Source of the DNA: Alphaproteobacteria bacterium
GTDB taxonomy: Bacteria > Pseudomonadota > Alphaproteobacteria > Futianiales > Futianiaceae
Length of the DNA stretch: 64,000 bases
Direction of reading: 5' to 3'
Assembly (NCBI GenBank): GCA_965204825.1
Contig: OZ242016.1
Location: 1,249,252 to 1,313,251, forward strand
The DNA's letters: not shown here
Content: a report on this DNA, generated by a model with database tools, continued

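Follow-up and report, generated by a model that had tools for sequence, protein, structure and literature searches.

Gene content and duplication of the island

All of the genes named in the first-pass annotation were recovered in the ORF listing and in profile searches of the components. The island is bordered by IS remnants, with an importer and further ring hydrolases inside it. Module 1 consists of an isochorismatase-family cysteine amidase (Iso1; 22298-22969, minus strand, found in the ORF listing and by profile search), a protein with four transmembrane (TM) segments (Mem1; 25515-26039, minus strand, the end at 26040 given previously being one base out of frame) and the hydantoinase-type subunits HyuA1 (26234-28288) and HyuB1 (28291-30549), both identified by profile search. 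Module 2 comprises Mem2 (39615-40127, minus strand), together with Iso2 (41456-42103), HyuA2 (42140-44563) and HyuB2 (44585-46480), the last three again identified by profile search. A PotA-type ATPase (33432-34538; profile search) is encoded on the strand opposite to two permeases and a solute-binding protein (34621-38004), and a dihydropyrimidinase/D-hydantoinase (38181-39632) scored 591.5 bits against the TIGR02033 cut-off of 393.25.

Pairwise BLASTP aligned the paralogs with E-values of 5e-21 to 1e-175, at identities of 42% (HyuA), 44% (HyuB), 36% (Iso), 34% (Mem) and 38% (the YrdC-like proteins). The duplication proposed at first pass was borne out, with five paralog pairs rather than three. 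Both modules also occur together in L007 and L016-L018 (L-numbers denote related loci in other genomes or contigs), where the orthologs are 56-88% identical; the duplication is therefore old, and both copies have been retained. Neither the isoelectric points nor the acidic-residue content of the proteins was unusual, and there was no hint of, e.g., an extreme halophile. A downstream nadABC operon (50.9-54.5 kb), considered as a link to pyridine or nicotinate metabolism, was set aside as coincidental, since a transposase fragment and an MFS gene lie between it and the island and since it was not seen in related loci.

The CE4 enzyme (23103-24140), a "polysaccharide deacetylase" in the profile search, had been described as PuuE-like. 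It scored 80.3 bits against the TIGR03212 cut-off of 424.6, and is instead ~73% identical over 291 aa to HP0310 (HpPgdA) of Helicobacter pylori. HP0310 was inactive on typical polysaccharides and on the acetylated amines, dipeptides and allantoin tested, and it lacks both a binding groove and a signal peptide; a small-molecule substrate was suggested (PMC3084791). General acetyl-esterase/acetylxylan-esterase activity, plus activity on chitin and chitosan, was reported in a later study (PMC3688963). HP0310 homologs adjoin polyamine-type importers, the contexts having been compared with HP0312, a COG0523 GTPase, as anchor (PMC3084791). The CE4 gene here is likewise followed by a small (108-aa) ORF and a CobW-type GTPase (COG0523; 24474-25508, profile search) beside the PotABCD-type importer, which matches that description. 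Whereas HP0310 is annotated as a peptidoglycan deacetylase, the CE4 gene here lies within a cytoplasmic cyclic-amide island, a setting that supports the suspicion of a small-molecule substrate voiced in the structure paper. If the readings proposed here hold, the island would give a context to the trio of HP0310, small ORF and COG0523 GTPase, for which the substrate question dates from 2011.

Predicted ring-opening hydrolases and partner amidases

Both A subunits contain the Hydant_A_N, Hydantoinase_A and Hydant_A_C domains and both B subunits the Hydantoinase_B domain, all above gathering cut-offs, and the ASKHA phosphate-1 motif D-V-G-G-T-x-T-D is visible in HyuA1 and HyuA2. Their placement rests on a comparison of scores with solved structures. 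The top solved match of all four subunits was the fused "N-methylhydantoinase" (7hk5/9h03), followed by caprolactamase (6yra), while the acetophenone and acetone carboxylases (Apc, Acx) scored much lower. The bit scores to the two hydrolases were 1.3- to 4-fold above those to Apc and Acx; for HyuB2 they were 236/207 bits versus 143/63. CapA and CapB were the top NCBIfam models (CapA 435 and 525 bits, CapB 193 and 216), but the equivalog cut-off is 1000 bits, and identity as caprolactamase was rejected. No NCBIfam model for N-methylhydantoinase (EC 3.5.2.14) matched the Hyu proteins. On the strength of their best scores, and with the CapAB equivalogs far under cut-off, both HyuAB pairs are assigned to the hydrolase branch of the hydantoinase/ketone-carboxylase superfamily. 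Members of this branch activate the ring carbonyl with conversion of ATP to ADP and Pi (PMC5214803, PMC8453981), and HyuAB are thus putative enzymes of ATP-dependent cyclic-amide hydrolysis.

Membership of the superfamily (PMC5214803) would also accommodate an acetone/acetophenone-type ATP-dependent carboxylase, to which the YrdC-like proteins would supply activated bicarbonate: ATP and bicarbonate are substrates of YrdC/TsaC enzymes, and the proteins here retain KxR and SxN. However, all four subunits score far higher to the hydrolases, inspection of the gene lists identified no small gamma-subunit gene beside either Hyu pair, and the constant partner is an amidase, so that a carboxylase is hardly credible. 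A possible link of the YrdC-like proteins to ApcE, the enigmatic epsilon subunit of acetophenone carboxylase, was dropped, there being no match to an NCBIfam Apc model and the ApcE family being unnamed in the Apc paper.

The partner amidases Iso1 and Iso2 both belong to PF00857, and their Asp/Lys/Cys catalytic triad is intact, being invariant in all 46 of the collected relatives. Iso1 scored 213.6 bits (~55% identity) to the deposited N-carbamoylsarcosine amidohydrolase (CSHase), 147 to the maleamate amidases NicF and Ami, and 121 to the Arthrobacter structure 1nba. The corresponding values for Iso2 were 126 bits, 117 (maleamate amidase) and 106. For both proteins, scores to CSHase, NicF and Ami (106-214 bits) contrasted with those to RutB, BiuH and nicotinamidases (<50 bits); RutB and BiuH, for which the profile models were far under cut-offs, were rejected as identities. 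By these comparisons Iso1 and Iso2 are placed in the N-carbamoylsarcosine-amidase/maleamate-amidase clade. NicF of Bordetella and Ami of P. putida S16, from nicotinate and nicotine degradation, share the isochorismatase subclade and the triad with Iso, and the conversion of a half-amide to a dicarboxylate by maleamate amidase fits the CoA-transferase, lyase and hydratase neighbours described below. In contrast to the nic-pathway systems, further nic genes are missing here, and Iso1 is nearer to the N-carbamoylsarcosine amidase entry.

The domains, the triad and the best solved matches together support the first-pass proposal of an ATP-dependent HyuA/HyuB and an isochorismatase-fold amidase in each module. 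The catalytic core is of a known kind, in which an isochorismatase-fold amidase acts after an ATP-dependent cyclic amidohydrolase. Creatinine degradation is an example: there, N-methylhydantoinase and N-carbamoylsarcosine amidase represent the same two families in the same order of action and are the best solved matches of all six proteins (four Hyu, two Iso). Unlike the solved N-methylhydantoinase, a single fused chain of 1288 aa, A and B are separate genes here. The island further differs from the creatinine system in its extra conserved partners (the YrdC-like proteins, Mem, the 10-TM protein M358, flotillin and a CoA-transferase/lyase set) and in docking elements appended to the Hyu subunits. 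The second-best solved relative, caprolactamase CapAB of Pseudomonas jessenii, shares the HyuA/HyuB architecture, as do lactam-hydrolysing oxoprolinase types. Its product being an amino acid, caprolactamase can do without a downstream amidase, whereas the island pairs HyuAB with Iso. At the level of the system, the island failed the comparison with the creatinine pathway among the proteins scanned, and its proteins fall below the equivalog thresholds for caprolactamase, PuuE, TsaC and FloT.

Conserved neighbourhoods and substrate class

The divergent YrdC-like pair (46485-47180, minus strand; 47336-48085, plus strand) was aligned with database homologs, and one genome per GTDB species was scanned. 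This gave 357 YrdC-like relatives; 80 loci were retrieved and analysed for synteny by tblastn and ORF clustering. Most come from Alphaproteobacteria, of which many carry the label Rhodospirillaceae and several are marine or associated with sponges, and from MAGs of Burkholderiales; cultured carriers include Algihabitans albus ac2, Marinibaculum pumilum KCTC 42964 and Aquibium sp. A9E412 (loci L053, L056 and L072). HyuA and HyuB were encoded no more than 10 kb from the YrdC-like gene in 36 of the 80 loci, and Iso in 45, and every one of the 31 loci with a HyuA2 ortholog (at least 60% identity) encoded Iso. In genomes with ~50% YrdC identity, the gene order differs, giving same-strand arrays such as CoA-transferase< HMGL> HyuA> HyuB> YrdC> Iso2> in L044 and YrdC2> YrdC1> Iso2> TRAP … HyuA> HyuB> in L053. 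The linkage within the modules thus recurs across genomes, and its persistence where the gene order has changed is good evidence of a functional tie between the YrdC-like protein and HyuA2B2-Iso2.

This constancy bears on the reading of the pairs as housekeeping 5-oxoprolinases of glutathione/pyroglutamate repair, surrounded by unrelated genes. The HyuA/HyuB Pfam families do include 5-oxoprolinases, and "5-oxoprolinase" is the PDB label of one caprolactamase chain. Yet there are two diverged copies here, each linked to an amidase that hydrolysis of 5-oxoproline does not need and that accompanies HyuA2 throughout, and their surroundings are an island with IS remnants at its borders, which also encodes an importer and further ring hydrolases; no glutathione-cycle genes are nearby. 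We consider such a housekeeping role very improbable.

The recurrent neighbours, checked with Pfam, included MmgE/PrpD (34 loci), an amidase-signature enzyme (22), a family III CoA-transferase (20) and an HMGL-like lyase (18). Acyl-CoA dehydrogenase (16 loci), MaoC of the mesaconyl-CoA-hydratase type (8), TRAP transporters and ICL/PEP-mutase-like lyases also recurred. The window encodes a CoA-transferase (18344-19621), an HMGL-like lyase (19658-20617) and an ICL-like lyase (21114-21980), respectively 70%, 59% and 50% identical to the recurrent-neighbour orthologs; MmgE/PrpD is absent from it. A search of a plasmid collection yielded one record, from Variovorax. Taken with the L075 and Variovorax arrangements described below, the recurrent neighbours suggest that the de-aminated product is a substituted dicarboxylate, which is hard to square with sarcosine.

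The full creatinine pathway would convert creatinine to N-methylhydantoin, open this with HyuAB to N-carbamoylsarcosine and release sarcosine, CO2 and NH3 with Iso, the two copies serving two related substrates. The Iso1 score to the solved "N-carbamoylsarcosine amidohydrolase" speaks for it, as do the name of the top solved relative of all four Hyu subunits, the JGI/IMG designation of 90%-cluster members as "N-methylhydantoinase B" and the sponge-associated MAGs among the carrier genomes; sponge symbionts have been proposed to use creatinine by way of these enzymes (PMC6742649). The database names, however, are automatic KEGG-style transfers, and labels of this type also underlie the creatinine inferences in sponge-microbiome studies (PMC6742649). 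HyuB2 is only ~33-35% identical to the solved N-methylhydantoinase, and the other HyuB lineage, found in L084 and L089, looks nearer to it by eye. Among the scanned window proteins, a set from which several small ORFs were left out, no creatinine deaminase, cytosine deaminase, creatininase, creatinase or sarcosine oxidase/dehydrogenase was found, although such genes could lie elsewhere in the genome. Moreover, CoA-transferase, HMGL-like, ICL-like, MmgE/PrpD, acyl-CoA dehydrogenase and mesaconyl-CoA-hydratase-like neighbours make no sense for a sarcosine product. With its partner genes not found among those proteins and the neighbours pointing to a dicarboxylate, the creatinine pathway as a system did not hold up, and we regard it as improbable.

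HyuA and HyuB are abundant in marine and host-associated Proteobacteria and are routinely read as "N-methylhydantoinase", i.e., as creatinine use, for example in sponge symbionts. The locus places one large conserved HyuA/HyuB subgroup in a different, more elaborate system, and a common annotation-based ecological inference would be corrected, provided that the present interpretation is sound.

A cyclic-imide pathway, a substrate-specific version of our best explanation and not in contradiction to it, is a serious possibility, if somewhat short of an even chance. A substituted succinimide, maleimide or glutarimide would be opened to the half-amide by HyuAB, by the dihydropyrimidinase (as an imidase) or by the CE4 enzyme, and Iso would act as the half-amidase, like maleamate amidohydrolase. 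The resulting alkyl-dicarboxylate would be hydrated and cleaved, directly or as a CoA ester, by MmgE/PrpD or LeuCD-like hydratases with an ICL-like lyase, or by the CoA-transferase with a citramalyl/HMG-CoA-type lyase. In favour of such a route, the N-methylhydantoinase of P. putida also hydrolyses succinimide and glutarimide in an ATP-dependent manner, and dihydropyrimidinases act as imidases.

The scores of Iso1 and Iso2 to NicF and Ami are in keeping with an imide substrate, and so are tight operons with overlapping stops and starts, exemplified by L075 (HMGL>CoA-T>MmgE/PrpD>YrdC>Iso2>TRAP, one operon, no HyuAB). In related loci, the YrdC pair is adjoined by MaoC of the mesaconyl-CoA-hydratase type and acyl-CoA dehydrogenase; in Variovorax paradoxus, a tandem YrdC-like pair occurs with ICL-like, LeuCD-like and CoA-ligase genes; and in Burkholderiales loci the pair lies by an Old-Yellow-Enzyme reductase, a TauD-type dioxygenase, an amidase, a CE4 hydrolase and MmgE/PrpD. 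ICL/PEP-mutase-like lyases adjoin HyuAB in the window, L063, L086 and L089. The closest characterised relative of HP0310 acts on a small cyclic imide-like ring (PMC3084791). On the other side, known imidases open these activated amides without ATP, which leaves the need for HyuAB unexplained; Iso1 resembles the CSHase entry more than it does the maleamate amidases; the window lacks MmgE/PrpD; and the carbon-skeleton genes may constitute an independent pathway. The imide route explains more of the conserved neighbours than the creatinine route. Because of the unexplained ATP requirement and the leaning of Iso1 towards ureides, our assignment stops at small cyclic amides of the ureide/imide class, with an imide or dicarboxylate link more likely for module 2 and a ureide link more likely for module 1.

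The YrdC-like proteins pass PF01300 (44.1 and 33.0 bits versus a cut-off of 25.1), with K49, R51, K55, S149 and N151 (231-aa numbering) invariant in 85 of 85 sequences of both paralog classes. Their aligned counterparts in St Sua5 are the KxR and SxN motifs. The Arg of the "vavRmP" segment of St Sua5, which we take from Sua5 structures to bind threonine, aligns with an invariant Asn (N126). Identity as TsaC/Sua5 was rejected, given this replacement in the threonine pocket and TIGR00057 scores of 40.5 and 24.6 bits against a cut-off of 123.2. We infer from the retained residues that ATP-dependent adenylation chemistry is probably kept, on a different substrate. TsaC/Sua5 and its paralog YciO share the PF01300 fold and KxR/SxN with the pair but occur in tRNA or rRNA contexts, whereas the genes here form paralog pairs in catabolic operons. 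The gene neighbourhoods described in a survey of PF01300 are all of the TsaC or YciO type (PMC12506659). Our literature searches found nothing relevant on YciO/YrdC gene neighbourhoods, and nothing linking hydantoinase with YrdC, or the YrdC fold with catabolic clusters.

Membrane proteins, flotillin and appended elements

M358 (40201-41277, minus strand) and Mem belong to unnamed families, with 553 homolog clusters for Mem2 and 241 for M358, none of which has a Pfam domain. Pfam and NCBIfam searches at relaxed thresholds returned nothing for Mem1, Mem2, M358, the 108-aa protein or the N-terminal extension of HyuB1. An AF2 model of M358, built with database homologs, had a mean pLDDT of 77, with a confident C-terminal seven-helix half; Foldseek against the PDB gave no significant match to a solved fold (best E 1.2), and a known transporter fold was not confirmed. 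The absence of Pfam or NCBIfam matches for Mem and M358, and of literature joining hydantoinase with YrdC, agrees with the first-pass view that the combination with YrdC-fold enzymes and membrane proteins is not a described pathway. As far as our searches reach, the accessory layer is new, comprising catabolic YrdC-like pairs, Mem/M358, a hyuAB-flotillin-potA operon, an N-terminal helix and a Rad52-fold domain on a hydrolase.

The SPFH/flotillin protein (30593-33409; 938 aa, profile search) has a Band_7 domain and one TM segment. With 38.5 bits to the FloT model against a cut-off of 700, it is classified on sequence grounds as an SPFH protein and not as a FloT ortholog. It shares Band_7, the N-terminal TM segment and a long repeat-containing tail, presumably a coiled coil, with YqiJ-YqiK (SPFH/NfeD) and with SPFH assemblies that organise clients. 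A further tie to SPFH/NfeD operons is provided by L083, in which Mem and M358 accompany a PspA-NfeD-flotillin operon. The window flotillin differs in being twice the usual size, in having no NfeD neighbour and in sharing a transcript with genes for a metabolic enzyme and an ABC ATPase. To our knowledge, no enzyme client is known for an arrangement of the hyuAB-flotillin-potA type.

Two kinds of appended element were observed on the Hyu subunits. The N-terminus of HyuA2 consists of a conserved helix, "S-WFD-x-Q-L…EFDRLGG", followed by a Pro/Ala-rich linker of 60-110 residues that is unalignable between orthologs. A regular expression for the WFD helix was specific in 15,313 six-frame ORFs, all 20 of its 20 matches being HyuA2 N-termini. 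The motif tracks Mem/M358 (14/18 versus 2/13; Fisher p = 0.001, raw counts not corrected for shared ancestry), the two exceptions representing a regex miss and a truncated gene; since the carriers form one clade, the association is not phylogenetically independent. Encapsulation peptides of microcompartment cargo offer an analogy, likewise combining a short conserved amphipathic N-terminal helix with a poorly conserved flexible linker. Neither shell genes of a microcompartment nor encapsulin genes were found, and the candidate receptor here would instead be the membrane proteins or flotillin.

HyuB1 carries a similar N-terminal helix (SLDDLLSANRKRFDSLF), a disordered linker and a domain of ~80 residues that has the Rad52 core fold. 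The window domain gave no match to PF04098 (Rad52/Rad22), and its homolog P0244 reached 18.3 bits against a cut-off of 20.3. An HMM of the domain had only 29 matches among 1.84 billion representative proteins; of those inspected, nearly all were HyuB1-type N-termini, and two were Pfam Rad52_Rad22 proteins. The HMM also detected the domain at the C-terminus of HyuB in L084/85, at the N-terminus of HyuB in L089, and in a free-standing 142-aa helix-linker-domain protein beside a CE4 gene in L084. In contrast to the Rad52/Mgm101 single-strand-annealing proteins, the domain is only ~80 residues long and is linker-fused to a hydrolase subunit. A role in DNA is implausible, and oligomerisation or docking appears the probable function, in which case a Rad52-fold domain would have been reused outside nucleic-acid metabolism.

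Three diverged HyuAB lineages thus combine linker-borne, docking-type elements with the Mem/M358 pair, which also occurs with flotillin alone, and in one HyuAB lineage the operon also takes in the genes for a giant flotillin and an ABC ATPase. We infer, at close to an even chance, that a membrane platform adjoining the importer keeps the soluble HyuAB in place. In this mechanism, the N-terminal helix on its flexible linker would dock the hydrolase onto Mem/M358, the Rad52-fold oligomerisation domain of HyuB1 would add to the docking, and both would take place under or inside a giant SPFH assembly. As that assembly would also hold the importer ATPase, uptake might be coupled physically to ATP-driven ring opening. 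Alongside this, a pathway intermediate would be adenylated by a catabolic branch of the YrdC/TsaC fold. The extended proposal, with HyuAB as clients of a flotillin-organised platform through a peptide or domain code and a new catabolic YrdC branch adenylating an intermediate, is unlikely in its entirety. Were these assignments correct, Mem, M358 and the catabolic YrdC-like pair, all orphan families, would receive their first functional context. The locus would provide a rare testable case of a soluble metabolic enzyme with dedicated elements for targeting to a bacterial flotillin/membrane platform, and would bear on what bacterial flotillins organise.

Alternatively, and with some plausibility, Mem/M358 may be a secondary transporter, with flotillin a bystander, the extensions inert or serving solubility or oligomerisation, and no platform. 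The 10 TM helices of M358 suit a permease, the co-occurrence of WFD with Mem/M358 is limited to one clade, and flotillin is absent from the L084 and L089 loci. Against a transporter, M358 matches no solved transporter fold, and in L083 (M358 > … > PspA > NfeD/YqiJ > flotillin > … > Mem, no HyuAB) the two genes flank the flotillin operon with no enzyme genes between. The three HyuAB lineages, moreover, have joined docking-type elements with Mem/M358 independently: in L084/85 a third lineage (30-36% identity) is followed by M358 and Mem, and in L089 ICL-like and CN-hydrolase genes precede HyuA-HyuB-M358-amidase-Mem. The free-standing helix-linker-Rad52-fold protein of L084 is likewise at odds with inert extensions. 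L088 contains M358-Mem2-DHPase-SBP-permeases, convergent with PotA-flotillin. In L086, a TARA scaffold, Mem1 | HyuA1-HyuB1-flotillin-PotA follow the order of the window, and flotillin (64% identical) and PotA (73%) are better conserved than the enzymes of the same operon (43-50%), which also argues against a bystander flotillin.

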